A stretch of DNA of 64,000 nucleotides from an uncultured Gemmatimonadaceae bacterium (GCA_963829055.1 CAWHHI010000020.1:96001-160000), one strand, 5' to 3'; positions 175-64,000 are shown, counted from the first letter of the stretch. Numbers and translations are program-made. The notes: generated by a model from the sequence alone, not told the origin.

Positions 175-201
175 CCCGCCTGCTGCAGCGGCACGTTAGG
201 T
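175..201 (-). mobile_element. attC half-site (R''/L'')
   Basis: Minus strand ACCTAAC-gtgcc-GCTGCAGCAGGC; contains the TAA stop of the 196-720 gene; core complementary to the one at 1206-1212. Confidence 0.55.
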
Positions 202-720
202 GGTGTCGCGCTGCGACTCGTGACGACGAGGGCTCCGCGAGTCGTCGGCCAGATCCGCGAACGCAATGTCGCCGCGCCCATCGACCTCACACCGGTAGAT
301 CGCCACAGCAGCCGCACCGGCCCATTCTTCGCGGCTTTCGCGCAGTTCCTCCGCGTCCTGCTCCTGTCGGCCCCGCAACTCCGCCACCGAGGCCCACGGC
401 AGCTTGCGCCGGTAGTCGGCACACGCCGCGGCAAGTGGGCCGCCCATTGCCGGAGCATGAAACAGCAGGACGATGTGGCGAACAGCGTGCAGCTCGACCA
501 GGTACCGACACTCGCGCCGAAGTTGCCGTGCGCGCAGGAAGTCTCGCCCACTCGCAGCGAGCGCGCCCGCACCACCGGGCACGTAGAATCGATCATACCG
601 AGTCACCTGGAGATGGTATGCGAGGAACTCGTCGGTCGCCTCCTGAAGTCGTCCGTCGGAGCACGCGATGACCAGCGTGCTCGGACGATCTGGCGACCAT
701 TGCCCAAATGCCCGCGTCAT
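196..720 (-). CDS. Beta-carbonic-anhydrase-like protein
   Basis: IACSDGR, VPGGAGAL and H...C motifs typical of the beta-CA fold. Confidence 0.6.
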   Translation of the reverse strand: MTRAFGQWSPDRPSTLVIACSDGRLQEATDEFLAYHLQVTRYDRFYVPGGAGALAASGRDFLRARQLRRECRYLVELHAVRHIVLLFHAPAMGGPLAAACADYRRKLPWASVAELRGRQEQDAEELRESREEWAGAAAVAIYRCEVDGRGDIAFADLADDSRSPRRHESQRDTT

Positions 721-796
721 TATCGTTTCCCTCGCATGTCACCTTGGTCGCACGCCCGACGCGAAGGCGCGAACGTCCCCACCGCCCTGATTCCCT

Positions 797-1189
797 TCAC
801 TGTGGCGCAGAGAGCGCACTGATCGTGATGTAGTATCCGTCAGGATCCCGGAGTGAGAACTCCGGTGTTCGAGTGTTCGGGTTCACGTGGGGCTCCTCCT
901 CGAATCGCTCGACGAGAGCGCGTGCCCTCTTCAGTGCCATCTCGTAGTCATCGACACGGAAGAACAAGAGGAGCCCGTTGCCAGGTGAGGCCTCCTCCGC
1001 GCTCATCAAGGATGGATGCTCGTGCGCGCCCCACCGGTGCAGGCAGAGCAGGACAGTTCCATCCGTATCCAGGATCTGACCAAAGTGGTCATGGGCCGGA
1101 GGCGTCTCGGGCTGGCCGAAGAGCGACTGGTACCACTTGAAGCTGCCGGGAACGTCGCTTACGCCGATGATCGTCCACGTGCGTTTCAT
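797..1189 (-). CDS. VOC/glyoxalase family protein
   Basis: GVSDV..SFKWY..LFG and EFSLRDPDGY motifs. Confidence 0.85.
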   Translation of the reverse strand: MKRTWTIIGVSDVPGSFKWYQSLFGQPETPPAHDHFGQILDTDGTVLLCLHRWGAHEHPSLMSAEEASPGNGLLLFFRVDDYEMALKRARALVERFEEEPHVNPNTRTPEFSLRDPDGYYITISALSAPQ

Positions 1190-1205
1190 AGCGTGACCGT
1201 TGTCA

Positions 1206-1290
1206 ACCTAACGCCAAGGTTCAGCCGCAAGCGAATCCAATAAGAGCGCGTGACGGAGCCACGCGCAATCCGAAGTCCGCTCAGCTGGGA
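1206..1290 (-). mobile_element. Degenerate attC site (L'/R' half intact)
   Basis: Minus strand GCTTGCGGCTGAAC-cttggc-GTTAGGT ending 16 nt before the VOC start codon. Confidence 0.6.
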
Positions 1291-1420
1291 TGCTGATGCA
1301 GATGTTGATGCAGGTGCAACCGTCGCGCAGTACGGGGCCGGGCAGCCGAAATGGTCGGCGCTCGGCGCGAACACCGGGCGGCGCTTTCCCGATGACGACG
1401 CTGGGCACTATCTTGGAGGC

Positions 1421-1486
1421 ATGACCTACTCGATCGCGCGTACACGGACGTCCTGGTGGTGGCCCTCTCTCCGAGCGGCCCGCTAG
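1421..1486 (+). CDS. trpL: Trp-rich leader peptide [21 protein letters not shown]
   Basis: GGAGG RBS, ATG at 1421, TGG TGG TGG at 1454-1462, TAG ending 1486, directly upstream of trpS. Confidence 0.85.
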
Positions 1487-1608: not shown

Positions 1609-2657
1609 ATGTCCGCCAACATGCTCGCGCACGCTCGCGCCGACGATCGCCAGAGCCAGGTCGACGCCACCGACGTCATACTCACCGGCGACCGCCCGAC
1701 TGGCCCGCTTCATCTCGGGCACTACGCCGGCTCGCTGCGCTCCCGACTCGCCCTTCAGGGCCAGTGTGCACAGACGCTGCTGATCGCCGACCTGCAGGCG
1801 CTCACCGACTCGAGCGGACGCGCCGCGCACGTGGCGGAGCACGTGCCCGAAGTCGCGCTCGATTACCTCGCCGCCGGGATAGACCCCGCGAGACCACGAT
1901 CGCGGTGCAGTCACGGCTGAGCGCCCTCGCCGAGCTGACGGTGTTGTACCTGAATCTCGTCACCGTCGCTCGGCTCGAGCGCAACCCGACGGTGAAGGCG
2001 GAGGTGGAGCTGCGCGGCTTCGAGCGCGACATCCCCGCAGGGTTCCTGTGTTATCCCGTCAGCCAGGCCGCGGATATCACCGGGTTCCGCGCGACGCTCG
2101 TCCCCGTGGGGGACGACCAGCTCCCGATGATCGAGCAGACGAACGAGATCGTGCGGCGGGTGAACCGCCTCGCGAGCGCTGCCGTGCTGCCGGAGTGTCG
2201 GGCGCTGCTCTCGAGCACCCCACGCCTTCCGGGCGTGGACGGCCGGAAGGCCAGCAAGTCGTTAGGCAACGCGATCCCGTTGAGCGCCACGGCCGACGAG
2301 ATCCGCGGACTGGTGCGCGCGATGTACACCGACCCGGGCCACGCGCGGGCGTCGGACCCGGGCCGCGTCGAGGGGAACGTCGTGTTCGCCTACCTGGACG
2401 CGTTCGACCCGGACCTGACGACGGTCAACGAGTTGAAGGAGCGCTACCGCGGTGGTGGACTCGGCGACATGGCGCTCAAGCGGCGTCTCGAGGGCGTGCT
2501 CGAGGCGCTCGTCGCGCCGATCCGCGCCCGGCGCGCCGAGCTCGCGCGCGACCGCGCGTACGTCATGGATGTCCTGCGCGCGGGCAGCGAGCGCGCCAAC
2601 GCCACGACGCAGGCTGTCCTCCGCGACGTGCGCGGGGCGTTCGCCCTCGACACGTAG
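1609..2657 (+). CDS. trpS: Tryptophan--tRNA ligase (TrpRS II type), frameshift near 1890
   Basis: [14 protein letters not shown] (HIGH), [23 protein letters not shown] (KMSKS). Confidence 0.95.
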
Positions 2658-2796
2658 CGCCCAGGTGCCGCGGAATACGTGCGCCGGGCAGCGCAACTCG
2701 GAACAGCCAACTCCCGTAGGGGCTACGAATGACGTGAGCCGTAACAGAGACACTCGGCTTCCGCCAAGGATCACACTGCGACCGTGGGAGACTCCA

Positions 2797-3096
2797 ATGC
2801 GCGTTCTCTGGATGCTGATCAAGATCATAGTCGGACTTGCGATCGCGATTCCGCTCGGAGTCCTTGCCCTCGCGCTGACGCTGGGCCTGGTAGGAACGCT
2901 GGTCGGCATCGCGATCCTCGTCCTCAAGCTCGCGTGCGTGGGACTGCTCGGGTACGGCTTGTATCGCGTCGCCCGGCTCGCCTTCGGGCCGTCGAAGACG
3001 TCGCCGCCTCCGGTACGCGAGCTGCCGCCCGTCGACAAATATTACGAAGCGGCAATGCGCGAGATCGACTCGGAGCTCGGGCCACCAGTGCGCTAA
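2797..3096 (+). CDS. Small membrane protein
   Basis: GGAG RBS, MRVLWMLIKIIVGL..., two hydrophobic helices. Confidence 0.7.
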   Translation: MRVLWMLIKIIVGLAIAIPLGVLALALTLGLVGTLVGIAILVLKLACVGLLGYGLYRVARLAFGPSKTSPPPVRELPPVDKYYEAAMREIDSELGPPVR

Positions 3097-3111
3097 CGCG
3101 GGGAGGCACGC

Positions 3112-3717
3112 GTGTTTCGCCTGTCTTCTTTGCTCACGACGTTGGTGTTTGGCGTGGCCGAAGCGAGTGTCGCGCAGAACAGCCCCGCGACCATCGCGGC
3201 CGCGGAGGCGGAAGGGGCGAGCTATCCGCGGGCGCCGATGCCGGGAACCGTCTCATGGGCGTTCAATAAGCCGTTCGGCGGGACGGCCGAGCGAAAGTGC
3301 GTTGCGGTCCGCCTGACGTGCCGACGCCGGGCGGATCATTGCGGTCTGGCGACTTCATCATCCGCTCGGGGTTGCTCCTCGGTATGGCCGCAGGCGAACG
3401 GGAACTACAAGGTCCTCTGGCTCCCGCTACACACACCGCCTGACATCCGAGCAACGTTGCTGCTTCGCGCCACGCGCATCGGGCAGCCGGCCGACTCGAT
3501 TCGAACCCGAATTCCTGCGGCAGGGACTCCCCGGAGCGCCGAGCTCGGCGGCTGGGTTCCCGAGCGGCGTCAGCTTCCCCGAGGCCGGCGAGTGGGTCGT
3601 CGTAGCAACGACAGGAAGCGATTGGGGATGTTTCCTGTTCAGGATTTCGTCGGTGTCGTTCAACGGGTCTCCCCTGGATTTCCCTGGGAGAACGCGATGG
3701 ACCAGACCGGCGCATGA
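3112..3717 (+). CDS. Hypothetical secreted protein, probably frameshifted
   Basis: Signal-peptide-like N-terminus after GGAGG; coding quality shifts between frames. Confidence 0.45.
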   Translation: MFRLSSLLTTLVFGVAEASVAQNSPATIAAAEAEGASYPRAPMPGTVSWAFNKPFGGTAERKCVAVRLTCRRRADHCGLATSSSARGCSSVWPQANGNYKVLWLPLHTPPDIRATLLLRATRIGQPADSIRTRIPAAGTPRSAELGGWVPERRQLPRGRRVGRRSNDRKRLGMFPVQDFVGVVQRVSPGFPWENAMDQTGA

Positions 3718-3789
3718 GTAGGCGTGCGGGGCACGGCCTAACGTGGGCGCTGCCGAGGACGCGTCGAAGAGGGTGTCCGTGATCCTCAC

Positions 3790-6217
3790 CTACTCGGCAC
3801 GAATGGCGACGACCGGATCGACCCGCGTCGCGCGAAACAGTGGTCCGGCGCACGCGGCCAAACACGCAAGCAGCATCGACGCCGCAGCGACGATCAACGT
3901 GATCGTGTCGAAGCTCTGGACACCATAGAACGACATCCGAATGAGCCGCGCTACACCTAACGCGCCCGCGAGACCTATCCCCGTCCCGAGCACCGCCTGA
4001 CCCAGCGCATCACGGACGAACAAACCGGCGATGTTTCGGCGCGTCGCACCGAGCGTGATCCGCACGCCGATTTCCCGTGTTCGCATGCCGAGAGTGTAGG
4101 ACATCACTCCGAACAGGCCAATTGCCGCGAGTAGCACGCCCGACACGGCGAACAGCACGAGCACGAACATCGTGAACCGCGGCTCGGCGAGCGATTGTTC
4201 GACCTCCGCATTCATGTCAGTGACGCGCCACGTCAACGGATCGGGGTGCACCGACCTGGCAAAGCGCCTGACAACGTCCACCGCATCCTTTCGGGATAAG
4301 CGCACAATGAGCGCCGTTCCGAAGTCGGTTTCGGGAAACGGCCGATACAGCGTTGGTCTCGTCGCGCGGTCGAGACGGTTGACGAGAATATCCGGAACGA
4401 TTCCGACCACCGTTTGCCATTGTTGGAGTGCCCCTTCCCGCCGGGAATTGCGAAACTGCCGCCCGACGACGTTGCCGTCGGGCCAGAGCTGCTGAGCGAG
4501 GGACCGGCTCACGATGACCTCGGCGCGCGAGGACGACCCCTCGTCGAACGTTCGTCCCGCGATGAGCGGCATTCGCAGTACCGAGAAATAGTCCGGTGCC
4601 ACGTAGTTGACGCCGGTGAAGCCCGACGGGCCTACGGCTCCGGGACGCTCGCTCGTCTCGAACGCCGAAGCGAATGATATGCCATCCGCGGTCGCTTCCC
4701 CGGCAATCGTTAGGTTCCGCGATCCCAGATGGCGCTCCGCCAGACCGCGAACCATGCTGGCGAAGGCGACTCGGCGCTCTCGGGGCTGGACCGCGTTCAG
4801 GTCGCGCTCGCGAAAGTCCACCGCGTAGAGGTCGTGCGGGTCGAATCCCAGTCGCACGCGTTCGAAGTCGAACACCGTGCGGATGAGAAGTATCGCTCCG
4901 GCGAGCAGGATCGCGGAGAGCGCGATCTGTCCAACGACCAGCGTCCCGCGCAGCCGGCGGTGACCGAGCGGGGCGCTCGACGCACCGGTTCGCAGCGCTT
5001 GTCCCAGATGCCCGTGCGCAACGTGCAATGCGCCGAGCACGCCGACTATCAGGCCCACGGCGATCGCCAGACCCGCGGCGAACGGGACTACTCCACGAGT
5101 CGTCGTTAGGTGAGACAGGGCCGGCAGGCTCGTCGGCCGCAACCACGCCAACACCTCGAGCGTTCCCCAGCCCACGAGCATGGCAAGTGCTCCCCCTGCC
5201 AGGCCGAGCAAGGCGCTCTCCGTGACCAGCTGGCGAACCAGCCGTGCGCGGTGCGCGCCAAGCGCATGACGCACGGCAAGCTCACGCTCGCGCGCCACAC
5301 CGCGTTGCAGTAACAAATGCGACACGTTGCTGCAGGCGATGAGAAGCAGGAAGATGACCGCACCCGTCAGGAGCAGCAGCGCCTGACGAAATGGAAGGTC
5401 GTCCTGGGGGCGGCTGAAGCGAATGCTCGGCTGGAGCGTCCGGTCGTCCGGATCGATGCCCCCCGCACGTTCGAGAATGGCGGTCAGCTCCTCGCTCGCC
5501 GCTTTCGGCGATGCGCCGGGCGTCAGGCGCACGGCGATTGCTCTCACACGCTTCCCGTGAATGAACGGGAGCCAGACGTCGGGTCTTTCGAATCTGAAGT
5601 CCGGAAGGACGAGTGACGCCGGCACCACGCCCACGATGGTGCTCGGGCGCGACTCCGGCTCCCCACCCAACTCCAGCCGCACGACCCTACCCAGGACGTC
5701 GGGCGATCCACCGAATTGCCGTCGCCAGAAGCCCTCGGACAGGAGGATCGCACGCGGCCCGTTAGGCGTGACCTCCTGCGATGTAAAATTGCGTCCGATC
5801 ACCGGCCGCGCCCCGGCAAAGGCGAGGAAGGCACTGTCGGCGAATACGGTCTTGATGCTGACATCCGCAGGGTCACCACGGAGATACGCGCTCGGCCCAC
5901 CGTCGTACGTTGCCGCGGCTTCGAGCGTGCGCGCGCTGTTTCGCCATTCCCGTACGACGTCGGCGGGTATCGGAAGCGAGATCGCTTCCCCTGAGAATGC
6001 TCCCTTGCAGAGCGACGGTGTAGACGCGCGACGCGTCGCGGTAGGCGAGCGGCCGGATGAGAAACGTGTCTGCGACACTGAACACGGCGGTGCTAGCCCC
6101 GACGCCCAACGCAATCGTCAGGAGCGTGACGAAGGTCCAGCCGGGAGAGCGCCGGAACTAGCGGAGTGCGAACGCCGAGTCCGTTACCACATCGCTCACG
6201 ACTTGCCACGTGCGCAT
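3790..6217 (-). CDS. Duplicated FtsX/MacB orphan ABC permease (ADOP-like); in-frame TAG at 6158 and frameshift near 6020
   Basis: LLLIACSNV..LL.R...RERELAVRHALGA, RTREIGVRITLGA, ATRVDPVVAIRAE. Confidence 0.9.
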
Positions 6218-6231: not shown

Positions 6232-6812
6232 TTAGGCGGTGTCGGTCGCCACGTTCGGGCGCGCGACGAGCATCAGGATGGCGCCCACGACCGCCGGGAT
6301 CGCGAACAAGGATACCATCACGGCGGCCATGAACGTGTTCCTTCGCGCCGAATGCTCCGAAGTCGGCCGCAATGACGAAGTAGTACGGCACCCAGACGAC
6401 GCCGCTGACGAGCAGCACCCACGGCGCCCAGCGCGCACCGCGGCGGGCCGCGAACCAGGCAACGCCGAGAAACGCCGCCGCCATGGCCATCATCTGGGCA
6501 CACATGCCAAGCATGGTGTCGACGAGGAGTTTATCAAGCTTCGGGTTGTTCTGGTGGAGCTGCGCGTACGTGGTGCCGAGCATGTATTCCTCGGGCTGGG
6601 TCCCGAGGAGGACGGCCCCATCCCCGAGCCCACTGACTGCCCGAGCCTCGAGCGCGATCGGCACCGCGAGAGCTGAAACGACGTTCAGTGTGCCGTAACC
6701 GAGAAGCAATACGAGCCCGACGCCGGATAGACTCTTCCAGCGGACCTTCGTGCCAGGTGCGATGGCGTCCACGGGAATCTCCGCGCGATAGCGCGATGGA
6801 ATGACGAGCATG
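6232..6812 (-). CDS. Hypothetical membrane protein (frameshift near 3' end)
   Basis: Several hydrophobic segments across ORFs 6158-6847 and 6232-6462; start uncertain. Confidence 0.55.
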
Positions 6813-6932: not shown

Positions 6933-7337
6933 TCACGCACCCTTGTTCTTGTCGTCCCAGGCCTTCGGCTCCCACAGCTCGATCTTGTTTTCGTCCGGAT
7001 CCATGATCCACGCGAACTTGCCATTCTCGTGCGACTCGGGTCCCTGGATGACTTCCACACCCCCCGCACGTAGTTGCTCGAGCAACTCGCCGAGGTTGTC
7101 GACCCGGTAGTTGATCATGAACGACGATGTACTCGGGCTGAACCACTTGCTGTCTTTCTGCGCGACATGCCACACCGTGAGGCCTTGATCCTCGGCCTTG
7201 TCGTCCGGCCATCTGAGTATGGCGCCGCCAAAGTCTTCCAGCGGCATGCCCAAGTGCTTCCGATACCACGCTGCCAATGCAGCGCTGTCGCCTTTGCTCT
7301 TGAAGAAGACGCCGCCGACTCCGGTAACCTTCGCCAT
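6933..7337 (-). CDS. VOC/glyoxalase family protein (cassette-like)
   Basis: VTGVGGVFFK, FMINYRVDNL, GKFAWIMDPDENKIELWEP; starts just after GTTAGGC and an AGGAGG RBS. Confidence 0.9.
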   Translation of the reverse strand: MAKVTGVGGVFFKSKGDSAALAAWYRKHLGMPLEDFGGAILRWPDDKAEDQGLTVWHVAQKDSKWFSPSTSSFMINYRVDNLGELLEQLRAGGVEVIQGPESHENGKFAWIMDPDENKIELWEPKAWDDKNKGA

Positions 7338-7362: not shown

Positions 7363-7460
7363 GCCTAACGCCTGAAGTTGAACTATGAGCGAATCAAACA
7401 AGAGCGAGCGAAGCGAGCAACCATAGTCCGCCCGCTCGACAGTCCCAACGTACGTAGCAG
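7363..7460 (-). mobile_element. attC site with degenerate R'' end
   Basis: GCCTAAC-gcctgaa-GTTGAACTATGAGCG...CGCTCGACAGTCCCAAC-gtac; same family as 23424-23513. Confidence 0.65.
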
Positions 7461-8465: not shown

Positions 8466-8997
8466 CTCACGCGTCAGCGCCCGCGACCCAGCCGACGCCG
8501 GCCATGCCGCAAAACAGCAGTCCGAGCCACGGGCGCCGTGTGCCTCGGAGGAATGGACGGCCAAGGTGCGCCTCTCCTCAAAGCGAGCGTCAGGCGATCG
8601 CGGCTGTGACTCGGTATCGCACCGAGCGAGATACGGCGTTCGAACGCCATCGCGGTAGGCTGGCCAATCACTGCAGCTGGATGACACGCTCAAACGTGCG
8701 GGCCGTTCAGCAAGCGAGCTCCGCTCCCACGCTCGCTTGACCTTGCAGCGCACGAGGTCCGGCGCGAGTTAGTTCGTGACGCCGTCGAGTGCGATGATGA
8801 TGCGATGTACTCGACGTCAGCGGAGTTCGCTCGGTTGTGTCTAAGGCATGAGGGTACCGTCCAAAGGCCAGCTCGCCGTGAGCCAGCGCGGGAGAGGCTG
8901 CGCATGGGCGGCGCGGCTGTGAAACTCGGTGATCGTCACGGCGTGCTCGCACGTGTAGCAGATCGGCAATGTGCATGACACGAGTGGCGTGTGAGCG

Positions 8998-18060: not shown

Positions 18061-18102
18061 GGCGCCTCCAGACGCGTTCGGTTCGGTGATATCAGGCAGC
18101 GC

Positions 18103-18948
18103 CTAACGACCACTCGCGAGCGGGCTGCTCGCGAAGCCGCGCAGCGCCTTCATCCATTGCTGCGTCATGATGCCGAGGACGCGCCTTCCCTTCTCCGCGG
18201 TCGCGAGCGTCGGGTCGCCGAACACGCCGCTCGTCGAGAAATCGGGATCTCCAGGACGGCGCGAAAAGTCGGTCGGCCGGTAGCCGGGGTAGGCCGCGAC
18301 GGTGTCCCCTCGGTAGTCGCGCACGGCGCGGTCCATGTGTACCAGTTCCGGCCGCAGCGCCAGGATGACCGAGGTCTCGAGATCATCGGCATGAGTGCCC
18401 GCACGCTGGGTCGTGAGAGCCTTCATCGCCGCCGTCTCGAGGTCGTCCCAGGAGATGACGAGTGTCGGCACTCGCTCCTGCGCGTAAAGTGTCCGAGCGG
18501 CAAGCGTGATGGGGATGCCGGTCGACCGTGTCACGCCGGTGTTCAGGAACACCACGCGCCTGGCGCCGTGCCGCACGAGCGAGCGCCCAGCCTCGAGCAT
18601 GTAGTGCCAGAACACGTCGGGGTCGCCAATGGTGAGCCCCGGAAACTCCGCGAAGGCTGGGAACCAGCCGTGCAAGATCGGCGGTGCGACCACCACGGGC
18701 AGCGAGTCGACGGCGATCTTCGCGAGGTACTCCATTACGATCTGGTCGCTTGCGAGCGGGAGGTGCGGCCCGTGCTCCTTCGCTCCGGCACCGAACGGCA
18801 GGATGACCATCGGCGCGTCACGCAGCCGGCGTTCCGCCTCAGGCCATGTCAGGTCGCCCAGGAATACACCACGGGTCTGCGCAGTGGCGGGCACCGCGAC
18901 GGTCGTGCTGAGAGCGATCGTGGCCACGATGCGAAGCGAGAGTGACAT
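18103..18948 (-). CDS. Creatininase-family amidohydrolase with signal peptide
   Basis: KEHGPHLPLASD, HADDLETS, SGVFGDPTLATAEKG. Confidence 0.9.
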   Translation of the reverse strand: MSLSLRIVATIALSTTVAVPATAQTRGVFLGDLTWPEAERRLRDAPMVILPFGAGAKEHGPHLPLASDQIVMEYLAKIAVDSLPVVVAPPILHGWFPAFAEFPGLTIGDPDVFWHYMLEAGRSLVRHGARRVVFLNTGVTRSTGIPITLAARTLYAQERVPTLVISWDDLETAAMKALTTQRAGTHADDLETSVILALRPELVHMDRAVRDYRGDTVAAYPGYRPTDFSRRPGDPDFSTSGVFGDPTLATAEKGRRVLGIMTQQWMKALRGFASSPLASGR

Positions 18949-19269
18949 TGTGCGCTAGCCTCCGGGAGATTTCACGGTCTACGCTACCGCCGCGCGGAAC
19001 GGCCCACACCTGGAGTTCACCTCACAGGAATCTGCCAAGATGCGGCGGCGTGGCCGCCGCCACCATACTCCGACGGCGGTGCTGCTTCTGCTCGAACGAG
19101 GGGCTGACTGGAAGCAGGGGAAGTCCGTCAACGGACTGCCGTTCGCGAGCGTGATCGACGGCGAGGTCGGCTCGCAGGGCAACGACAGCGCGTTCGTGGA
19201 CGTTAGGCGATACCTGCAGCAGCACTGAGTGGAACGCGCCTGGCGGGTCGGTCACCAGGGCCGCGACCG

Positions 19270-19782
19270 ATGTACTACGAGGAGCTGCACGGTGGCGTGT
19301 GGGAGCGCATCGCCATCGACGGCGAGATGCTCACGGGGCGCGCGCATCACGTCATCTACTTCGCGACCCCCGAACGGTGGCTCCAGTATCCCGAGTGGGC
19401 GAAGGCGCGGCGTGATGAGATCATCGCACGCGTCGTGAGCGAGTTCCGCGAGCCGGACTACGAGTATCACAGTGCCGGCGCCGGCAGCACGGTCGCGCGA
19501 GCGGCACCCGTGGTGTCAACGCCGAGTGGAAAGCGCGCACTGTTCATCGCAGTGCTGATGCTCTTCGCGGTCGCCGGCGGGATGGGATGGCTGGTCACGC
19601 GCGGCGTTGTCGGTGGCGAGACGTATTACCCCAACACGCGACCATCTCTGCGACGCATGGTGTCGCGTCCGCGGGAGCCCGTCATGTTCTGGGCGTCGAT
19701 CGGCGTGTACGCCGTCATCGGAGCAGGCACGCTGACGCTTGGCGTGCTTGGCGTGCGCGCGGGACGACGGCTGGGGAAGTGA
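19270..19782 (+). CDS. Hypothetical membrane protein
   Basis: 170-aa ORF, soluble N-terminus and two C-terminal TM segments. Confidence 0.55.
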   Translation: MYYEELHGGVWERIAIDGEMLTGRAHHVIYFATPERWLQYPEWAKARRDEIIARVVSEFREPDYEYHSAGAGSTVARAAPVVSTPSGKRALFIAVLMLFAVAGGMGWLVTRGVVGGETYYPNTRPSLRRMVSRPREPVMFWASIGVYAVIGAGTLTLGVLGVRAGRRLGK

Positions 19783-23250: not shown

Positions 23251-23341
23251 GCCTAACGCATAAGTTGAGCTGCAAGCGAACGCAGTAAGAGCGCGGCCCG
23301 CCGCTTCGGTAGCCCCCTTGTCAATGCAACGCACGTTAGGC
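23251..23341 (-). mobile_element. Complete attC site
   Basis: Minus strand GCCTAAC-gtgc-GTTGCATTGACAAG...CTTGCAGCTCAAC-ttatgc-GTTAGGC. Confidence 0.8.
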
Positions 23342-23423
23342 GACCGGTCACGATGCCGACTTCGTGTCGGCGCTGCTGATAGGAAGGCCTGCATACGCTG
23401 CTTACCCCAGAATATGGGCATTC

Positions 23424-23513
23424 GCCTAACGCCTGAAGTTCACCTGCAAGGTTGATCCGGCGGCACAACCGCCAGCACGATAGCGCCCTTGGCGAGTGCA
23501 ACGCACGTTAGGC
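23424..23513 (-). mobile_element. Complete attC site
   Basis: Minus strand GCCTAAC-gtgc-GTTGCACTCGCCAAGG...CCTTGCAGGTGAAC-ttcaggc-GTTAGGC. Confidence 0.8.
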
Positions 23514-23523
23514 GGTTACCGCG

Positions 23524-23746
23524 CTACGCCGCCACGAACTCTGGGACGGTGATCCGGATGTCGCGACAGATCTGGCGGAGTAGTGTGGGTGAGATATCTC
23601 GCCCCCGCGTGCATCGGGACAGTCGTGACGCGGCCGTCCGTGTGCCGAAACTGTTTGTGCGAGCCGCGTTGGCGGACCTCGACGAACCCGAGTCGCTCAA
23701 GGCGGGCGACCACTTCGCGCGGCTTGAGGACGGGGACGGACCCCAT
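23524..23746 (-). CDS. hicA: HicA-family toxin (frameshift near 23605)
   Basis: [29 protein letters not shown] then [10 protein letters not shown] in the adjacent frame. Confidence 0.9.
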
Positions 23747-23758
23747 GGTGTCGGCGGC

Positions 23759-23968
23759 CTACGCCACGAGGATAGTCTGCGTTCCAACGAACTCCGCCTC
23801 GAGCGGCGGGTCCCCGTCCTCCAGGAGCATCGCGATTACCTCGCGGAGGTTGGCATGCAACTCGTCGAGGCTGTCCCCCTGAGTGTGTGCCCCCGGAAAC
23901 CCGGGAACGTACCCGACGAAGACACCCGTCTCTGGATCGCGCTCAATTACGGCGGTGTAAGTGCGCAT
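23759..23968 (-). CDS. hicB: Short HicB-family antitoxin
   Basis: YTAVIERD...VPGFPGAHTQGDSLDELHANLREVI. Confidence 0.9.
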   Translation of the reverse strand: MRTYTAVIERDPETGVFVGYVPGFPGAHTQGDSLDELHANLREVIAMLLEDGDPPLEAEFVGTQTILVA

Positions 23969-24025
23969 AATAGCTGAACTTATGCGGCATTCCAATCCAT
24001 GCAAGTCGATGGGTCCGGTGCATCC

Positions 24026-24243
24026 GCCTAACGCTCATCGTGCGGCGTTCGTGAAACGGATAACGGGGCGTGACCGCGCGAATACAGCGCTTCTTCGCCG
24101 TCTAATTCACGACAATGCGGCGAGGCTCAGGCCGCAGATGTAACCCCCGTCGTGCCAACCTGATACTTCCGAGCGACGCCACCGTCCGTGTTAGGCGGCG
24201 AGGCTCGCCGTATAACACAATGGCGACAGAGCACGTTTCGAAC
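24026..24243 (-). mobile_element. attI-like module, copy 2
   Basis: Same blocks and spacing as 8998-9216; its GTTAGGC core opens the hicBA cassette. Confidence 0.5.
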
Positions 24244-24402
24244 ACACCCTGACCCCGCCGCTCTACATGCCGGACGCCTAACGCGCCATACCACCGGACG
24301 CCGGGTGCACAAGCGGGGCGGCTATCGTGTCAGCCCACGAAGCCTCGGCAGCCAGCACGATGGCTATTCCCAGCTACGCTGCAAGCTGATGTCTGGCCCA
24401 TT

Positions 24403-25285: not shown

Positions 25286-26905
25286 CTAGGCCCTGACCGT
25301 TCGACGAGCGCGGTCCTCCTCCCACTCGACGAATGGGCCATCGAAGTCCGTGAGCTGCGTGCCGTCGAACGACCACACGCGCGTTGCTACCTCGCGCAGG
25401 AACGCGCGGTCGTGACTCACCAGGAGCACGGAGCCTTCGTATTCGTCGAGCGCATCCTCGAGCGCCTCGATGTTCTCGACATCGAGATGGTTGGTCGGCT
25501 CATCGAGAATCAGGAGATTGGCACGCGCGAGCGTCATGAGCGCGAGCGCCACGCGAGCCCGCTCGCCACCGCTCAGTGTGCCGATCTCGCGTTGCACTTC
25601 GTCGCCGCTGAATCCGAACGCACCGAGACAATTCTGCACCTGGCCCCGGCTCCAGAGCGGCCGCTGATCCTGGATCGCATCAAACAGCGACTTGCGGAGC
25701 GGGAGGTCCGCGAGATCCTGCCGAAACCACGCGGGGGTGATCGATCCGCCGATCCTTGCCTCGCCACCCGCCGGTGCGCGATCGCCAATGATCGTGGAGA
25801 TGAACGATGACTTGCCCGCGCCGTTAGGCCCGACGAGCGCGACGAAGTCGTTCCGTCGGAGCACCGCCGTGAAATCCTCCACGAGGACGCGTCCGGGGAC
25901 TTCCACGCGCAGGTCCTCGATCGCGACCACCTGGTCGCCGCCGCGTTCCGCGGTTTCGAACTGCAGCGACATCGTCGCTGGGTCGCCAGGCGGCGGTGCG
26001 AGACGCGGCAGGCGCTCGAGTCGCTTGCGCTTGCCCTTGGCCTGGAAGGAGTTGACGCCGGCCAGGTTGCGACGGATGTACTCCTCTTCCTTCTTCACGT
26101 ACGCCCGCTGCTTTTCCAGCTCGCGCTCACGCGTTAGGCGTCGCTCGGCGCGCTGCGGGACGAACTGGCTGTAGTTCCCTCTGTACCACTCGCTCGTGCG
26201 CGCTTCCAGGTGCAGGATGTGCGTGGCGATGGCATCGAGGAACGCCCGGTCATGCGAGACGACGATGACCGTCTCGTTCGCGTCGCCGAGCCATTCCTGG
26301 AGCCACGTCGTGGTGTCGAGGTCGAGGTGGTTCGTGGGCTCGTCGAGGAGGAGCAGGTCAGCGGGCGCGATGAGCTGCGCCGCCAGGCCGACGCGTCCCC
26401 GCTCGCCACCCGAGAGCGACGACACCGGGCGCACCTTGGACTCCTCGGCGTCGAAGCCGAGGCCCTGAAGCACCGCGTCGACGCGAGCGTGGTAGATGTA
26501 GCCGCCCAGGTCCGCGAAGCGCTCCTGGTCGTTCCCGAACTGTTCGAGGAATTCGTCCGTGACGCGGTCGCCGAGCTCACCCAACTCGATGGCCTGTTCG
26601 GCGATTCGCTTCTCGAGAGCGATCACTTCGCGCCACGCCGCCGCGCCCGCGTCCCACACCGTGGTCGCGCCCTCGAAGGCGCGGTGCTGGTCGAGCAGGG
26701 CATGCCGAAGTCCCGGCTTGCGTGCAACGCTCCCCACCGTGGGTTTGAGATCCCCGGTGATGAGTTTGAAGATCGACGACTTGCCAGCGCCGTTGCGTCC
26801 AATGATGCCCCACCGCTCGCCGTCGGCGACGGTGAAGGTGATGTTCTTGAAGAGTTCCGTCGCGCCGAAGGAGACGCCGACGTTGGCGAGCGAGAGAAGG
26901 GTCAC
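25286..26905 (-). CDS. ABC-F family ATPase
   Basis: Two ABC domains (GRNGAGKS, GPNGAGKS, LSGGE, DEPTNHLD), no TM segments. Confidence 0.95.
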   Translation of the reverse strand: MTLLSLANVGVSFGATELFKNITFTVADGERWGIIGRNGAGKSSIFKLITGDLKPTVGSVARKPGLRHALLDQHRAFEGATTVWDAGAAAWREVIALEKRIAEQAIELGELGDRVTDEFLEQFGNDQERFADLGGYIYHARVDAVLQGLGFDAEESKVRPVSSLSGGERGRVGLAAQLIAPADLLLLDEPTNHLDLDTTTWLQEWLGDANETVIVVSHDRAFLDAIATHILHLEARTSEWYRGNYSQFVPQRAERRLTRERELEKQRAYVKKEEEYIRRNLAGVNSFQAKGKRKRLERLPRLAPPPGDPATMSLQFETAERGGDQVVAIEDLRVEVPGRVLVEDFTAVLRRNDFVALVGPNGAGKSSFISTIIGDRAPAGGEARIGGSITPAWFRQDLADLPLRKSLFDAIQDQRPLWSRGQVQNCLGAFGFSGDEVQREIGTLSGGERARVALALMTLARANLLILDEPTNHLDVENIEALEDALDEYEGSVLLVSHDRAFLREVATRVWSFDGTQLTDFDGPFVEWEEDRARRTVRA

Positions 26906-40954: not shown

Positions 40955-43900
40955 ATGAGCCGGCTGTGGCATGTCGTCGCGATCGCGACACTCGTCACGG
41001 GCATTCCGAGTATCCTCCAACCTCAGGGCCTCGCCGGCGCGGCGGTCGTCGGCGTCGTCACACGCCGCTCCGGCGATCCGGTCCCTCAGACGCGCGTCGT
41101 TCTCCGGAACACGAGCACGGGGTTCACGCGCGAGCAGCGAGCCGGTTCGAACGGCCGATTCGTGTTCGAGGGCGTTCCGCCCGGCGGACCGTACGAGCTC
41201 CGGGCGTTCGCCCTCGGGCTCGATCCCGCACGGTCAGCCGACACGTTCACACTGGCGCTCGGCGACCGGGTCGCGATCGACCTGGCATTTTCGGAACAGT
41301 CGGCGGCGGTCCTGCCGACCGTAGCGGTTCGATCCGACCCGCGTGGCAATGAAGGTGGACCGACGTTCTCCATGTCCAGTGAGATCGTCCACGACTTTCC
41401 GCTCCTCAACCGCGACTTTACGGGATTGTTCGCTACCATCCCGCAGGCGGTCAACGTTCGCGGGGAGTACTCCGTGAGCGGCCAGCTTCCGTCCCTGAAC
41501 GCGATTCAGATCGACGGCGGCATCGCCAGTGACGTCTACGGCGTATCGCGGACGCCCGGCGAGAATGCGGGTGCCAAGTCCATCTCGCTCGAGGCGATCG
41601 ACCAGATCCAGGTACTCGTCGCTCCGCTCGACGTGCGACAGGGTCGTTCACCGGTGCGCTCATCAATGCTGTCACCAGATCGGGCACGAACCGTTGGCAG
41701 GCGAGCGCGTTCTCGTCGGTGCAGGATCAGGTCCTCGTGGGCAAGGACACGGCGGGGACACGCGCGAACGGCTTCGACGTTCTCCAGTACGGCGCGACGA
41801 TCGGTGGCCCCATCATCCGGGACAAGCTGCACCTGTTCGTCGCCGCCGACCTGCAGCGGAGGCGAACGCCTTTCATCGGGCCGGACGCGAGCGACCCTGC
41901 GACCGGCATCAGCGTAACGACGGCGACGCGCGCGTCAGCCGCGTTTCGTACGGTGTACGGGTTCAATGCAGGTGGACCGGAGCCGCCCATGCTCAGTCAG
42001 CCCGATCGGTCCGTGTTCGCAAAGGTGACCTGGCAGCCGTCGAGTCGCCATCGCGTCGAGCTGTCGCACAACTGGGTGGACGCGTCGGACGAGAACCTCG
42101 GGCGCAACGCACGCTTCTCGGCGCTTCGTCCAGGCGGATGGGCGCTATCGCGAAGCGGCATGGTCACGTCGGACGTCATCCACACGACCCGGCTCCACGC
42201 CATGAGCGCGTTTGGATCGTTAGGTAACGAGCTCATTGCTGGCGTTCAAACGACGAACGAGGATCACGCCTCGACGCTCCGCTCGCCGCTGTTTGTCGTG
42301 CAGGGGGATTCGCCCGGGAGCTATCTGGCGGGAGGGTCGGTTGGCGGTGCGACCGGCACCATTCTCGATCAGCGCATGGCCGAGCTGACGGACAATGTCA
42401 CCCTTCTCCTCGGTTCACACGAGCTAACGGCGGGCGCGCACGCGGAATGGTATCGGTTCACCGACAACTTCTTCCCCAACTCGTGGGGGGCATGGCGCTT
42501 CCCAAGCGTCGAGGCGTTCGAGCAGAAGCAGCCGGACTGGTACCAGATTGCTTTGCCGCTCCGGCCCGGTGGACCGTTAGGCGACTTCGAAGCGGGCCAG
42601 GTGGCGGCGTACGTGCAGGACCGGTGGACGCCGGTGGAGCGATTCAGCGTCACCGCGGGCGTCCGCGCTGATCGCCCGCACAGCGACGTGCCGGCCGAGA
42701 ATCCAGCGCTCGCTTCGAGTGTGGCGTTAGGCGCCGGCTACTCGCGCCGGTTCGCCGTGGCGACGCAGCTCTCGCCGCGGCTTGGCCTCAGCTGGCGCGC
42801 GACCAACCGTCACGCGGTGGTGGTGCGCGCGGGCGCCGGAATGTTCGCCGCGCGTGCCCCGCAGGTCTGGCTCGGCAACGAGTTCGCGAGTTACCGGTCT
42901 CGATCAGGCGACGCTCGTGTGCACGACGAAGGAAGGCGTCCCGGCTCCTGTCGTCGAGCTTGGCTCGCTTCCTCGGCAGTGCACGAAGTCCGGAGGCACG
43001 ACGCCAATCAGCACGGCGGCGTACATCGGCCGCGGCTTCCGTTCGCCGCAGGTGTGGAAGTCGCTGGTCGGTATCGACGCGGTGCTGACGCGGCAGACGT
43101 CGGTCTCGATCGAATGTCGTGCGGACCGACGCGCGGTACCAGAATGTATGTCCGCGATGCGAACCTCACGCCGACGGGGACGAACGCCGAAGGCCGGGCA
43201 ATGTACGGACTTCCCGGCGCAACCGGCAGCCTAACGCCGTCCCGACCCGATCCTGCGTTCGGTCAGGTGCTCGCGTACGACAGCCGGGGTGGCGATCACT
43301 CAGCGGCGGTATCGGTGTCGGCTACGAAGCGGTGGAGCAATGGATCGATCGGACAGGTGGGATATCAGTGGTCGCGCGCGGTCGACGTGCTGACGCTGTT
43401 CAATCCCGGCGGGATGCTCATGTTCCAGAACTCGGCCCTCAATGGAACGATCGACGCACGCCGCCAGACACGATCAGGTACGGATGTGCCGCACAGTCTG
43501 GTGGCGAGCGCGGTTGCTCGGCTCCCATTCGCGGCGCAGGCGTCGTTCCTGCTGCGCGCGCAGAGCGGTCGTCCGTATAGCTACACCATGAGCGGCGATG
43601 CAAACGCGGATGGCGTGTCGCTGAACGACCTGTTCCATGTTCCTCGCGACTCGGCGGACGTCTCGTTGACGAATCACGAGCGGTGGGGCGAGCTCGATCG
43701 GTACGTCGAGAGCCACGCATGCCTGAGGGCGCAGCGCGGACGCATCATGGCCCGGAACTCGTGCCGCAACCCGGCCGTCCTGACGCTCGACGGGCGGCTC
43801 GCGAAGACCGTCTCCCTCGGGGGCATCCAGCGCATGGAGATCGGCGTCGACGTCTTCAACCTGCCGAATCTTCTCAACCGCGACTGGGGACTCGTTAGGG

Positions 43901-44070
43901 AAACGGCATCGAACCAGTCGGTCGCCATGCTCGGTGTGTCTGGATGGGATCCCGCGTTCAACCGGCCGCAGTACAAGTTCCTTCCGGGTGGGCTTCCGGT
44001 CGACAACGTAGCGCTGGTGGACGCATCGCAATGGAAGATCCAGCTAGGGATGCGGTACTGGCTTCGCTAA
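40955..44070 (+). CDS. TonB-dependent receptor, Oar-like (several frameshifts)
   Basis: Carboxypeptidase-regulatory N-domain, PLLNRDF, SISLEAI, QYGATIGGPIIRDKLHLF, AYVQDRW, C-terminal QLGMRY. Confidence 0.9.
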
Positions 44071-60117: not shown

Positions 60118-60118
60118 T

Positions 60119-60720: not shown

Positions 60721-60772
60721 CGCCAGAGCGCGGATGCTCCAGAAGCGCCGCGGGCTTCGAGAGCGTTTGACG

Positions 60773-61994
60773 TCATCCGTGCAGCTCGAGCGCAGCCGCG
60801 AAACACGCGTGAGGTGCCACGACCTGACGAGCACGCATGTCAGTCAGCGCACGGTCAATGACCTGTTGAATGAATTCGCGCTTTGGTGCGAACGCGGACT
60901 TCGGATCCGACACCTTCTGGACAATACGAAGTCGTCCGCCGTCAGCGCTGACGATGTCGACTCGGGTGGCAATGGTGGTCAGCATCATCATCGCAAACGA
61001 CTCCGTCCAATCGTCCTCCGGTCGCCACGTGGAGAACACAGTGGTGAAGCTCGAGGGGCCGAGCTGCTCGAGAAACGTCGAGATTCCCTCGCGGGGCGCA
61101 GGCTGCCAGTTCGCGATCTCATGGACGCCGGCATCCCACACCGTTCCCTGCTTTTCCATAGCCGTGCGCATCGCCACGCGCGCACTGACATTGCCGTCAA
61201 AATCGAGCGTGCGCACCACCTGTACACCAGGTTCCCGGGCGACCGCGCCGTGCCAGCCAGTCGAGTCGCTGTATCCAGGTGAGATCCAGCTCAGGAATCC
61301 GAATTCCCCGGGCTCGAACGCTTTGTTCGATGGCTGCCGTCGCACCACGGCCGCGGTAGTCGTAAGCCAGGACATGTGCGACTTCGTGCGCGAGGAGATG
61401 AAACAGCACGTCGCTCGAGCTCTGGAGATCGGATTCTACCCGAGGCAGCGTTGGGTCATTGCCCGGTCGGTCGATGGATGCGCCGGTCCACCAATGTTGT
61501 GTCCAGCCGCTGGCCCAATCGATGTAGCCCACCTTCCTCTCGAGCAGCCCTCGCCGGACGCCGATGGTTCGGTACTCGCGCTGTGTTTGGGGATCGGTGG
61601 TGATCCTGAAATCCGCGTTCCAGATGAGCTGGTCGTCGAGATAGATCCGGTCGAGCGAGCAGAGGTAGGCTTTCACAATGGGCGGGGCGGCGCGGTAGAC
61701 GTCGAACAACGGCTGGACATACGTCGGGCGATCCACCCGCGATTCGCACGTGTCAGCCGGACTGTACGTTCGAGCGCCGATCGTGAGGCAGATCTTTCGT
61801 TCCAAAACATCCAACGCTCTCAGCGTGTCGGTATTCTGCGCGGTGCTCGGAGCGCGTGAGACGGCGCATGAGGATGCGGAGATCATCCAGGCCAAGGACA
61901 GGCTGGTAGCCCGAACGTATCCGGCCACTCGTCGAAGCCCGACGTGGTTGCAATGACGCGATGGTTCCAGTGACGCGTTCATGGATCCGCTCAA
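60773..61994 (-). CDS. Hypothetical lipoprotein with HExxH zincin-like motif (two ORFs joined by a frameshift near 61360), cassette-borne
   Basis: ASSC lipobox-like; LAHEVAHVL; downstream EDDWTESF; flanked by complementary attC cores. Confidence 0.55.
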
Positions 61995-62017
61995 TTCGGA
62001 ACACTTCTCAGTAGTCG

Positions 62018-62046
62018 CCCTAACGCATGAAGTTCACCTGCACGCG
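62018..62046 (-). mobile_element. attC half-site (L'/R')
   Basis: Minus strand TGCAGGTGAAC-ttcatgc-GTTAGGG, nearly identical to the R' half of 23424-23513. Confidence 0.65.
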
Positions 62047-64000
62047 TGGCTTTCCTGGTCCCCAAAGTCGCCGATGGCTTCGCTCGGCAAGACGACTCGA
62101 AACGTGGTTCCTTCGACTGCGGTTGATCGAACCTCGATCTGCCCTCCGTGCCGGCGGATCACTTCATTTGAGATGTAGAGACCCAGGCCGAGACCCGCCG
62201 GGCTCCGACTCGAACGCTCGCCCATGCGGAACGGGTTGAAGAGCGCGGACTGAAGTTCTTGCGGAATGGGTGGGCCTTCGTTGTGCACCTGGACCCACAC
62301 ACGGAAGTCCTCGGCGCCCGCGGTCACCGTGACCGGCTTGTCCGGATCGCCGTGGGCGAGCGCATTCCCTATGAGGTTCGAAAACACCTGCTCGAGGCGG
62401 TCGCGATCCCAGGCGCCGCGCAGCTTAGGACACTGCAGCTGAATCGTCGCGGCCGGACGGGCCATTCGCAACTCGTCCACGATCGGTACGAGCGCTTCGC
62501 GCAGATCCATCGGCGCGAAGACGAGCTCCAGGCCACCCCCGAGACGACTGCGGGTGAAATCGAGGATCTGTTCGATCATGCGGGACATGCGACGCGAGCT
62601 GGCCTGCAGACTCGTTAGGTCTTCGAGGAATTCGGGATTCTTGCTCTCCCTGCGCAGCACTGCGAGGCGTACCTCGATCGAAGCCAGCGGTTGACGCAGG
62701 TCGTGCCCCACGATGGCGATGAGCCGTTCCCGAAGCTCCGACGCGTCTTCGGCGCGTTCTCTCTCCTTCTTGGCCGTATGGAAGAGCTCCGCGTTATGCA
62801 TCGCTGTGGATGCGCGCCGTGCCAACTCTTCCGCAAAGACCAGGTCATGCTCGTTGTAGCCTCTCGTCTCGGTCGTCGCGAAGACGATCACGGCGAAGGG
62901 ACTCCCCGCGATTGTGATCGGAACGTGGATCGTCGAGGAGATGGCAAATCTCAGAATCAGCAACGCCGACTCATCGTCCACGTCCTGTCCACGAAGCTCC
63001 TCTCGCGCCGTCTTGGAATGAAGCTCGGAGCGCCCCGTTCGCATCACGCGGCGGCTGGGAGCGGCCGCTCGATAGGCGCCGTTGACCTGGAGCTCGCGAA
63101 TGGCAGCGAGCATCTCCGGGTTGCCTGCGTGGAAGAAGCCGAGGCGAGGCTCGCCCTCAGAATCCCTCACATGGATCACCACGCTGTTCGCAAAGTTGGG
63201 GACGGCCATGCGAGTGATGGTGAACAGGATCTGGTCCGAATCGAGCGATTCCGCCAAGAGGCGGGAGGCATCGGCGAGAATTGCCATGCGCCGCTCAGCG
63301 TGTTTTTGCTCGGTGATGTCGCGCGTGACTTTGGCGAAACCACGTAGACGGCCCGACTTGTCGTGCAGCGCCGTCACAACCACGTACGCCCAGAAACGCG
63401 ACCCGTCCTTGCGCACACGCAGACCCTCGTCCGTCGCGACACCCTGCTCGGCCGCCCGTCGCAACATCCGGCTCGGCGCTCCAGCGATCACGTCCTCCGG
63501 AACATAGAAGCGGTCGAATGACTGGCCGATGATCTCGTCGGCACGATAGCCCTTGATACGCTCGGCACCCGCGTTCCACGTCATGACGTGTCCATCGAGG
63601 TCGAGAAAGAAGATCGCGTAGTCGCGCACTTCGGCGACCAGCAAGCGAAACTTCTCCTCGCTCTCGCGCAGCACTCGCTCTGCCTCGTGCCGTTCGGCCT
63701 CACGCTGCTCCTCGGCGAGGCGGCGTTCACTCAGATCTCGGGTAACTTTTGCGAACCCAACCAGCGCTCCCGATTCATTGCGGATCGCCGTAATAATGAC
63801 GCTCGCCCAGAACCGAGTACCATCTTTGCGGACTCGCCAGTTCTCTTCTTCATATCGTCCGTCGCGCAGAGCGGCTTCCAGCAGTTGCTTCGGATGCCCG
63901 GCCTTCCGGTCCTCTTCCGTATAGAACACCGAGAGGTCCTTGCCGATGATTTCTTCGCGCTTGTACCCCTTGAGTCGCTCCGCACCGCTATTCCATGTGG
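62034..64000 (-). CDS. PAS-PAS-GAF sensor histidine kinase (5' end outside window)
   Basis: WN.GAERIKGY, RVRKDG.RFWA, GHDLRQPL, NLIGNAL, GLGLGLYI. Confidence 0.95.
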   Translation of the reverse strand, partial: TWNSGAERLKGYKREEIIGKDLSVFYTEEDRKAGHPKQLLEAALRDGRYEEENWRVRKDGTRFWASVIITAIRNESGALVGFAKVTRDLSERRLAEEQREAERHEAERVLRESEEKFRLLVAEVRDYAIFFLDLDGHVMTWNAGAERIKGYRADEIIGQSFDRFYVPEDVIAGAPSRMLRRAAEQGVATDEGLRVRKDGSRFWAYVVVTALHDKSGRLRGFAKVTRDITEQKHAERRMAILADASRLLAESLDSDQILFTITRMAVPNFANSVVIHVRDSEGEPRLGFFHAGNPEMLAAIRELQVNGAYRAAAPSRRVMRTGRSELHSKTAREELRGQDVDDESALLILRFAISSTIHVPITIAGSPFAVIVFATTETRGYNEHDLVFAEELARRASTAMHNAELFHTAKKERERAEDASELRERLIAIVGHDLRQPLASIEVRLAVLRRESKNPEFLEDLTSLQASSRRMSRMIEQILDFTRSRLGGGLELVFAPMDLREALVPIVDELRMARPAATIQLQCPKLRGAWDRDRLEQVFSNLIGNALAHGDPDKPVTVTAGAEDFRVWVQVHNEGPPIPQELQSALFNPFRMGERSSRSPAGLGLGLYISNEVIRRHGGQIEVRSTAVEGTTFRVVLPSEAIGDFGDQESHACR

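Follow-up and report, generated by a model that had tools for sequence, protein, structure and literature searches.

Why should one short word recur about once per kilobase, on both strands and in several reading frames, along a 64,000-nucleotide stretch from an uncultured Gemmatimonadaceae bacterium (GCA_963829055.1 CAWHHI010000020.1:96001-160000)? We call this whole stretch the window; it is part of contig C20 of a source genome, labelled G000, of 7.78 Mb with 66.7% G+C in 20 contigs. The word is the octamer CGTTAGGC (complement GCCTAACG), with the heptamer core CGTTAGG/CCTAACG. Our tentative answer is that it may be a self-identifying tag of the kind used in DNA uptake.

The word in the window and across the genome

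The first-pass annotation of the window had counted about 62 heptamers, about 34 on the plus strand and 28 on the minus strand. A recount returned exactly 62 (34 plus, 28 minus) over the same span, from position 194 to 62619. Thirty-six lie within called open reading frames (ORFs) and 26 outside, and 47 of the 62 extend to the full octamer. Their starts are as follows.

Heptamer, + strand: 194, 2260, 4708, 5104, 5760, 6230, 11418, 11829, 13161, 14264, 15145, 16177, 19201, 20936, 23334, 23506, 25822, 26132, 37805, 42218, 42575, 42725, 43893, 46239, 49134, 49890, 50034, 50346, 55615, 58548, 59305, 59627, 60713, 62613
Heptamer, - strand: 1207, 3737, 3956, 7364, 8999, 9283, 10142, 12179, 13365, 14703, 17527, 18102, 19786, 21326, 23252, 23425, 24027, 24277, 27752, 31479, 39664, 39681, 43230, 46596, 52694, 52968, 58044, 62019

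Shuffling the window 100 times with dinucleotides preserved gave a mean of 2.73 heptamers and a maximum of 7, and 62 was reached in none of the shuffles. The earlier expectation of about 7 was too high, so the excess, which we confirm, is larger than first supposed.

Genome-wide, G000 carries 6,391 heptamers, and every one of the 20 contigs holds them at 0.64 to 1.09 per kb. The octamer occurs 5,004 times (2,547 on the plus and 2,457 on the minus strand), with 131 copies expected from an order-1 and 257 from an order-3 Markov model. It is the most over-represented 8-mer of the genome under lower-order models; we used these because a maximal-order ranking, in which sub-words absorb the excess, did not show it. 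The enrichment is thus neither confined to the window nor explained by decayed attC sites alone, as all contigs carry the heptamer and attC-type sites are few.

Alignment of all TTAGG sites in G000 gave the logo C(88%) G(96%) T T A G G C(77%). Outside these eight bases no position exceeded 0.16 bit, apart from a three-base coding periodicity. The flat flanks indicate that CGTTAGGC stands by itself and is not part of some longer repeat, and the lack of any conserved sequence beyond the 8-mer rules out dispersed repeats of the repetitive extragenic palindrome (REP) or miniature inverted-repeat transposable element (MITE) type. Some one-off variants are tolerated, namely TGTTAGGC (435 copies), CGTTAGGT (827), CGTTAGGG (428) and CGTTATGC (583); the first two, which are C-to-T products of the word, are the most enriched. 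Variants changed at positions 2 and 7 are almost missing (9 to 58 copies), and those with a purine transition at G6 or G7 number 24 each. Among the matches listed by a literature search on the word or its complement there was nothing but unrelated primers, and we found no paper linking Gemmatimonadota with uptake sequences.

The word is written into genes at the DNA level

Genes were called with a home-made hexamer model, which gave 7,212 genes covering 76% of G000 DNA. Many genes are frameshift-split (among them those for chorismate synthase, peptide deformylase, MetH and an MmeI-like methylase), which suggests long-read assembly errors, so that gene-based counts are approximate.

All four stop-free frames are used by the 5,004 octamers (xCG-TTA-GGC, 1,321; CCT-AAC-G, 931; xGC-CTA-ACG, 616; GTT-AGG, 457), and the two frames that would create a stop hold only 2 and 14. 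Another 383 copies straddle gene ends, where the TAG or TAA of the word can act as a stop codon, and 1,280 lie outside called genes. The resulting density is 0.56 per kb within called genes versus 0.70 per kb in uncalled DNA.

We then compared 6,405 called genes with synonymous shuffles made within each gene (20 runs). These genes contain 1,715 sense and 1,489 antisense octamers (3,204 together), and the shuffles contained 51±7 and 99±9. This null is conservative, because rare codons that are present owing to the word stay in the shuffled genes: copies of the word account for 57% of TTA codons in G000 (1,576/2,783), 20% of CTA and 14% of CCT. The enrichment survives both the Markov and the codon-shuffled nulls that had been proposed as a check. 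Individual sites in the window illustrate how the word is accommodated.

2260..2267, + strand, word in a Trp/Tyr-tRNA synthetase-family ORF (PF00579; 1764-2657, + strand), read TCG-TTA-GGC (S-L-G) with the rare TTA codon
25822..25829, + strand, word in an ABC-F ATPase gene (25286-26905, - strand), read CCT-AAC-G within the Walker-A G-P-N-G-A; usual spellings in 78 relatives are CCC/CCG-AAC/AAT
26132..26139, + strand, second word in the same ABC-F gene (25286-26905, - strand), read CGC-CTA-ACG in R-R-L-T-R; usual spellings in the 78 relatives are CTC/CTG
42218..43899, no single strand, five words in one TonB-dependent receptor-type gene (41719-44070, + strand), with three readings: S/P/A-L-G, S-L-T and V-R
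18101..18108, - strand, word supplying the TAG stop of a creatininase-family ORF (18103-18948, - strand)

Both ABC-F sites are synonymous respellings (CTC to CTA and CCC to CCT) at residues conserved in the 78 relatives; the nearest named relatives of this protein all come from metagenome bins that bear the label Gemmatimonadaceae or Gemmatimonadales. The codon readings of the first-pass annotation were right for the trpS-like S-L-G and for R-L-T (CGC-CTA-ACG, 13364), P-N (CCT-AAC, 5760) and V-R (GTT-AGG, 10141). Its three proposed stop codons fared less evenly, with 18103 borne out by the creatininase ORF and those at 6232 and 59629 ending ORFs that the gene caller rejected. The codon-shuffle null and the ABC-F respellings support its view that the word is maintained at the DNA and not the protein level: the word has been written by substitution, against the genome's own codon habits.

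Sites saturate the genome and repel each other

We next considered as contexts all places in called genes where a synonymous respelling could make the heptamer. Occupancy was 61% for P-N-[VADEG] (1,927 contexts), 27% for [SPTA]-L-G (5,758), 8% for x-L-T (9,685) and 4% for x-V-R (12,869), a ranking that tracks codon cost. Occupancy also depended on the distance to another site. It was 1.5% below 50 bp, 3.5% at 50 to 100 bp, 7% at 100 to 200 bp and 12% at 200 to 300 bp, and reached about 20% at 500 to 1,000 bp. More than 3 kb from another site it dropped to 2.6%, which corresponds to regions that lack the word altogether.

Among the 4,047 coding sites we observed 46, 166 and 357 pairs closer than 100, 200 and 300 bp. 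Random placement in contexts of the same class (200 runs) gave 253, 489 and 704 such pairs, with minima of 221, 439 and 649, and all four orientation pairings of close sites were depleted. Sites therefore repel each other at short range, a new finding of this analysis. Diminishing returns per DNA segment would predict both this repulsion and the nearly equal densities in coding and non-coding DNA.

The word has no polarity. Windows of positive GC skew held 468 plus-strand and 423 minus-strand copies and those of negative skew 769 and 790, so the replichore test suggested earlier reveals no skew. Neighbouring sites had the same orientation in 2,589 cases and the opposite in 2,395, which is near random.

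A foreign or chimeric block lacks the word

The longest word-free gap in G000 lies outside the window and measures 49.6 kb (C6:5440-55038, loci L124-L126; G+C about 0.70). Core genes occur in it for a second time, comprising a trp operon and genes for chorismate synthase, DAHP synthase, FtsK and PepA, several of them frameshifted, with a D5_N primase-like gene at one end of the block. Compared with the copies on contig C16, whose context is the better match, its core genes reach only 46 to 60% identity. This low identity points to a foreign insert or a chimeric assembly join. Either way, the block is an internal control, in that the word can be missing from similar genes of similar G+C. The word behaves as a built-in marker of self that exposed a 50-kb foreign or chimeric block, and it could be used for checking bins and finding recent transfers.

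The word is patchy among Gemmatimonadota

We surveyed 201 genomes of the order Gemmatimonadales that were at least 85% complete, and called a genome word-rich if it had at least 300 octamers and at least twice the count of a reversed-word control. The distribution and candidate-gene tallies given here (octamer, integron integrase, ComEC and MmeI-like counts) include four unpublished genomes (G013, G089, G207 and G245), on which no conclusion rests. Seventeen of the 201 qualified, spread over 12 genera of three families. Counts run from 2,501 to 5,112 octamers in the seven genomes of the source organism's own genus (G000 included) and reach 6,360 in G014, which belongs to a different genus. Most other genomes of the order have 5 to 60, a number that the reversed-word control exceeds several-fold. 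Within one genus, three genomes carry 3,479 to 4,141 copies and the fourth, G150, carries 66; G150 is the most diverged of the four, at about 70% nucleotide identity over the PilM-O region versus 81 to 86%. Sister lineages with 66 and about 4,000 copies would be a natural experiment for finding whatever reads the word.

None of 45 Gemmatimonadota genomes outside the order had more than 70 octamers or exceeded the control, and only five of 80 named ABC-F loci carried the word at 0.14 per kb or more. Enrichment is thus patchy and, within the phylum, confined to the order of this Gemmatimonadaceae genome, which agrees with the earlier description of a lineage-specific, highly iterated sequence. 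Site positions in the PilM-O region are common to the closest genomes and mostly different between genera, which means ongoing turnover or independent accumulation. The organism itself was found as contigs in 20 public runs of 17 studies (rhizosphere, soil and sediment), with 758 differences from the window.

No alternative 'dialect' word was detected in word-poor relatives in the 12 to 21 kb screened per genome. Two candidates were rejected: GAGTTCAT was equally common in all five genomes tested, and GGATGACA, in one relative, proved to be a clustered repeat at about 30-bp spacing and not a dispersed one. The latter occurs 660 times in G000 (in the window at 8679, 30822 and 37853), frequently in CTCGGGATGACAC pairs separated by about 20 or 90 to 100 bp, and 848 times in the relative behind locus L028, in arrays of about 30 bp. 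Possibly it represents a family of clustered repeats or operators; it is separate from the dispersed word. Heptamer microsatellites, (GGGAATC)n and (CCCAGTC)n (C3:88291, C3:159216; in the window at 43883), account for the 10-mers most enriched in G000, which have 240 and 212 copies.

A possible tag for DNA uptake

To our knowledge, experiments have established sequence-specific DNA self-recognition in only two proteobacterial families; a recent proposal extends it to cyanobacteria. The resemblance of the word to the tags of those two families, together with the uptake machinery encoded in G000, leads us to place an uptake tag first, and of the four mechanisms listed in the first-pass annotation this one fits best. 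We hold it tentatively, at somewhat short of even confidence. On this reading a putative reader would prefer DNA segments with at least one copy of the word, and would most likely be part of a type IV pilus/ComEA/ComEC uptake route. Homologous recombination would then spread word-carrying alleles. At positions where the protein can bear them, point substitutions towards the word would build up, until a copy was present in every stretch of a few hundred bases to about 1 kb.

The genome encodes the parts for such a route: ComEC, DprA, an HHH_3 ComEA-type stretch, a secretin next to PilMNO, two major pilins, a minor pilin and, in the pilus cluster, two unknown genes. Should the reading hold, this would be a third, independent case of sequence-specific DNA self-recognition, in an abundant and almost uncultured soil phylum, and would suggest that biased DNA exchange is more widespread.

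Several points weigh against an uptake tag. These bacteria are known only as metagenome bins. The uptake gene set is near-universal in the order and does not discriminate rich from poor genomes: ComEC (PF03772) is present in 195 of 201, G000 among them, and the pilin/minor-pilin/PilMNO cluster, the second pilin and the ComEA-type gene are equally present in word-poor G150, whose pilin and minor-pilin-like genes show the same degree of divergence (about 30% identity). No reader emerged from the hand-picked candidates, which we compared across the 201 genomes or in a five-genome contrast of word-rich G122, G154, G210 and G162 with word-poor G150. The word is a bare 8-mer, as opposed to the 9 to 12 bases with flanking preferences of known uptake sequences. 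Overall spacing is not strikingly regular (coefficient of variation 1.05, or 0.92 without the 50-kb gap), depletion being limited to short range. The gene calls are crude and the assembly frameshifted, which leaves the coding/non-coding split approximate. The same anatomy would follow from a function inside the cell that calls for one site per segment. Finally, the word is identical to the core of local integron attC-like elements (see below), which an uptake model does not predict and can accommodate only with an extra assumption.

The peptide footprint, by contrast, counts in favour of an uptake tag. Word-encodable peptides were 1.28-fold (P-N-[VADEG]), 1.15-fold ([SPTA]-L-G), 1.22-fold (V-R-[LPHQR]) and 1.08-fold ([SCRG]-L-T) as frequent in G000 as in ORFs from the loci of 73 word-poor relatives, a comparison that sets a whole genome against the neighbourhoods of one gene, with differing gene sets, and is indicative only. 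Reversed-order and sibling controls were mixed (N-P 1.19, P-D-[VADEG] 1.15, others 0.89 to 1.02).

Intracellular readers and repair bias as less likely alternatives

The word could instead serve a system inside the cell that needs one copy per few hundred bases to kilobase, and be kept by natural selection without any uptake bias. Such a system might be a recombination or repair signal (Chi-like nuclease protection or strand discrimination), a self/non-self mark for defence, or an abundant chromosome-organising protein. We regard this as unlikely, although it is a serious competitor. It predicts the same saturation, short-range interference, uniform cover of the chromosome and word-free foreign DNA, and it sits easily with the failure of any uptake-specific gene to track the word.

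Enzymes able to read short asymmetric words are also at hand. A search for N6_Mtase led to an MmeI/Eco57I-like adenine methylase of 1,050 to 1,250 amino acids followed by an SNF2 helicase (loci L132, L133 and L134); the G000 copy, at C8:73524-78339, is split over several frames. The methylase is present in 189 of 201 genomes, G150 included, unusually universal for a restriction-modification-type enzyme and found in rich and poor genomes alike. The similarity of its specificity region was 0.531 among word-rich genomes versus 0.503, and the other two regions show the same step. Being near-universal, and with no extra likeness of the specificity region among rich genomes, it was rejected as a presence/absence or obvious specificity marker.

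The word's distribution is also awkward for an intracellular signal. It lacks the replichore skew of Chi and FtsK-orienting words, and patchiness within one family, down to a single genus in which G150 stands apart from its three word-rich sisters, would be odd for a housekeeping function. As far as we know, nucleoid proteins bind degenerate, mostly intergenic sites and not thousands of exact intragenic 8-mers, which counts against the chromosome-organising variant; the nucleoid-protein site listed in the first-pass annotation may nevertheless apply.

A bias acting site by site, in which near-words are converted wherever they arise by methylase-linked very-short-patch repair, as long discussed for the cyanobacterial repeat HIP1, and without any function at the level of the segment, is considerably less probable. 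It would account for an exact short word written by point substitutions that are largely synonymous, and for the scarcity of purine-transition variants at G6 or G7. The enzymes it calls for do not follow the word: Vsr (PF03852) occurs in 32 of 201 genomes, only two of them among the 17 word-rich ones, and not in G000, and C5 methylases are absent from all four word-rich genomes tested and number two in G150. The C-to-T products TGTTAGGC and CGTTAGGT are enriched and not depleted. Nor can such a bias explain why contexts with a site within 50 to 100 bp are filled about ten times less often, or why unconstrained DNA is barely denser than genes; together these two observations argue against any site-autonomous mutation or repair bias. 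The methylation and repair option of the first-pass annotation is therefore disfavoured.

Its proposal to look for phylogenetic co-occurrence with candidate genes likewise yielded no match, as none of the integron integrase, Vsr, C5 methylase, VirB4 or MmeI-like methylase tracks the word; VirB4 (PF03135) was found in none of the 201 genomes. An N6_N4 methylase was dropped as a reader after inconsistent results across the five-genome contrast.

Relation to integrons

The integron core-site consensus is GTTRRRY, and attC sites are imperfect palindromes of 55 to 140 bp beside cassettes. The word matches the R'' and R' ends of local attC-like elements letter for letter, both in the window and in an array beside an intI-like gene, so the spelling identity noted in the first-pass annotation is real. 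This identity is too exact for chance. The relevant features of the window are these.

23251..23341, + strand, attC-like element of 91 bp with inverted ends GCCTAACG ... CGTTAGGC, identified by reading the sequence
23424..23513, + strand, second attC-like element of 90 bp, with the same ends and similar inner sequence
23759-23968, - strand, cassette-like HicB antitoxin gene just before the longer attC-like element
24026..24195, + strand, longer attC-like element with start GCCTAACGC and end GTGTTAGGC, a one-off variant
7363..7370, - strand, attC-type start GCCTAACGCCTGAAGTTGAAC directly after a glyoxalase gene (6933-7337, - strand), where contigs of another population diverge (loose end at 7387)

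The attC-like cluster in the window (23251-24283) has no integrase. An intI-like gene lies on contig C20 about 48 kb past the window end (C20:200700-208958), scoring 265.7 bits (cut-off 265). At least seven attC-like sites follow on its 3' side, which is an unusual arrangement. Two segments of the window, of 126 bp (3309-3436) and 94 bp (19241-19336), are missing from contigs of three or four other populations. The 126-bp segment is flanked by the direct repeat CCGCCTGAC, and neither segment has attC features.

Could the words themselves be integron-related, either kept as integrase targets (dispersed attI/attG-like capture sites) or left as relics of attC sites and cassettes? Besides the shared ends, two observations lean this way. 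The few copies in word-poor relatives often form same-strand arrays at 500 to 700 bp, with the look of cassette arrays, and an integron integrase over cut-off (profile TIGR02249) was found in 118 of 201 genomes, namely 14 of 17 word-rich ones versus 104 of 184 others. The remaining evidence makes this reading the most improbable of those considered, as an attC-type inner flank accompanies only 21 of 6,391 sites in G000 and inverted pairs within 200 bp number only 85, so that more than 99% of copies are solitary and lack inner attC sequence; the logo has no flank signal; sites in conserved genes arose by substitution and not insertion; and perfect capture sites in frame inside conserved or essential genes should be selected against, since insertion there would be harmful. 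Most genomes with an integrase are word-poor, and three word-rich ones, G210 (3,479 copies, 95% complete), G088 and G170, have none over cut-off. The earlier suggestion of dispersed recombinase targets for cassette capture is not supported.

A bolder idea, to which we give only slight credence, joins the integron identity to the uptake tag. The reader of the word might be tuned to the conserved ends of cassettes, so that some Gemmatimonadales would preferentially admit cassette-bearing DNA from any integron carrier, and the flooding of their own genomes would be a by-product of this preference when it acts on DNA of their own kind. Were this true, natural transformation would be mechanistically tied to the acquisition of integron cassettes. 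In any case, the shared spelling of the word and the integron core suggests a link, open to testing, between two major ways in which genes are acquired.

Comparison with known systems

Like Chi and the FtsK-orienting KOPS words, the word is an asymmetric, over-represented 8-mer, and those two are read by a DNA-processing machine. Chi and KOPS are strongly skewed towards the leading strand. The word, by contrast, is far more enriched and shows no strand skew switching with GC skew, which rules out a polar word of this class.

The likeness to the integron core (GTTRRRY, with RYYYAAC as the inverse core, in attC and attI) is one of spelling. GTTAGGC fits the consensus and ends the attC-like elements of G000 and its relatives. 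The imperfect inverted repeat that defines an attC site is found at only a few elements, such as 23251-23341; unlike attC sites, almost all copies of the word stand alone in ordinary genes, and the presence of an integrase does not predict enrichment.

The cyanobacterial HIP1 (GCGATCGC) is likewise an octamer that runs through genes in very high numbers and is distributed quasi-periodically, and it is now proposed to act in DNA uptake (PMC13756078). HIP1 is a palindrome that is recognised by two methylases and reportedly correlates with type IV secretion genes. The word has no such symmetry, neither C5 methylase nor Vsr tracks it, and the order lacks VirB4 in every genome surveyed, so it does not belong to the methylase-linked palindromes of the HIP1 type.

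The closest parallels are the uptake signal sequences (USS) of Pasteurellaceae and the DNA uptake sequences (DUS) of Neisseriaceae. In DUS systems the minor pilin ComP is the word-specific surface receptor; we identified no counterpart here of ComP or of the predicted ComN. The word also differs in lacking the flanking preferences of USS, in occurring in uncultured soil bacteria of a different phylum whose word-poor sisters keep the same pilus and ComEC genes, and in coinciding with the integron core. The shared features, as described in PMC1939737 and PMC2817400, are many. USS and DUS have in common a lack of orientation bias, an intragenic location and their spacing (PMC1939737), and the word follows them with about one copy per 1.2 to 1.5 kb, equal use of both strands and no orientation bias round the chromosome (PMC1939737, PMC2817400). 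Most copies are intragenic, in several frames whose use follows codon cost, and the word is lineage-specific, missing from foreign DNA and less often in close pairs than expected by chance (PMC1939737, PMC2817400). Even the peptide footprint of G000, though its P-N controls also rise, is in line with the enrichment, roughly twofold, that PMC2817400 reports for USS and DUS.

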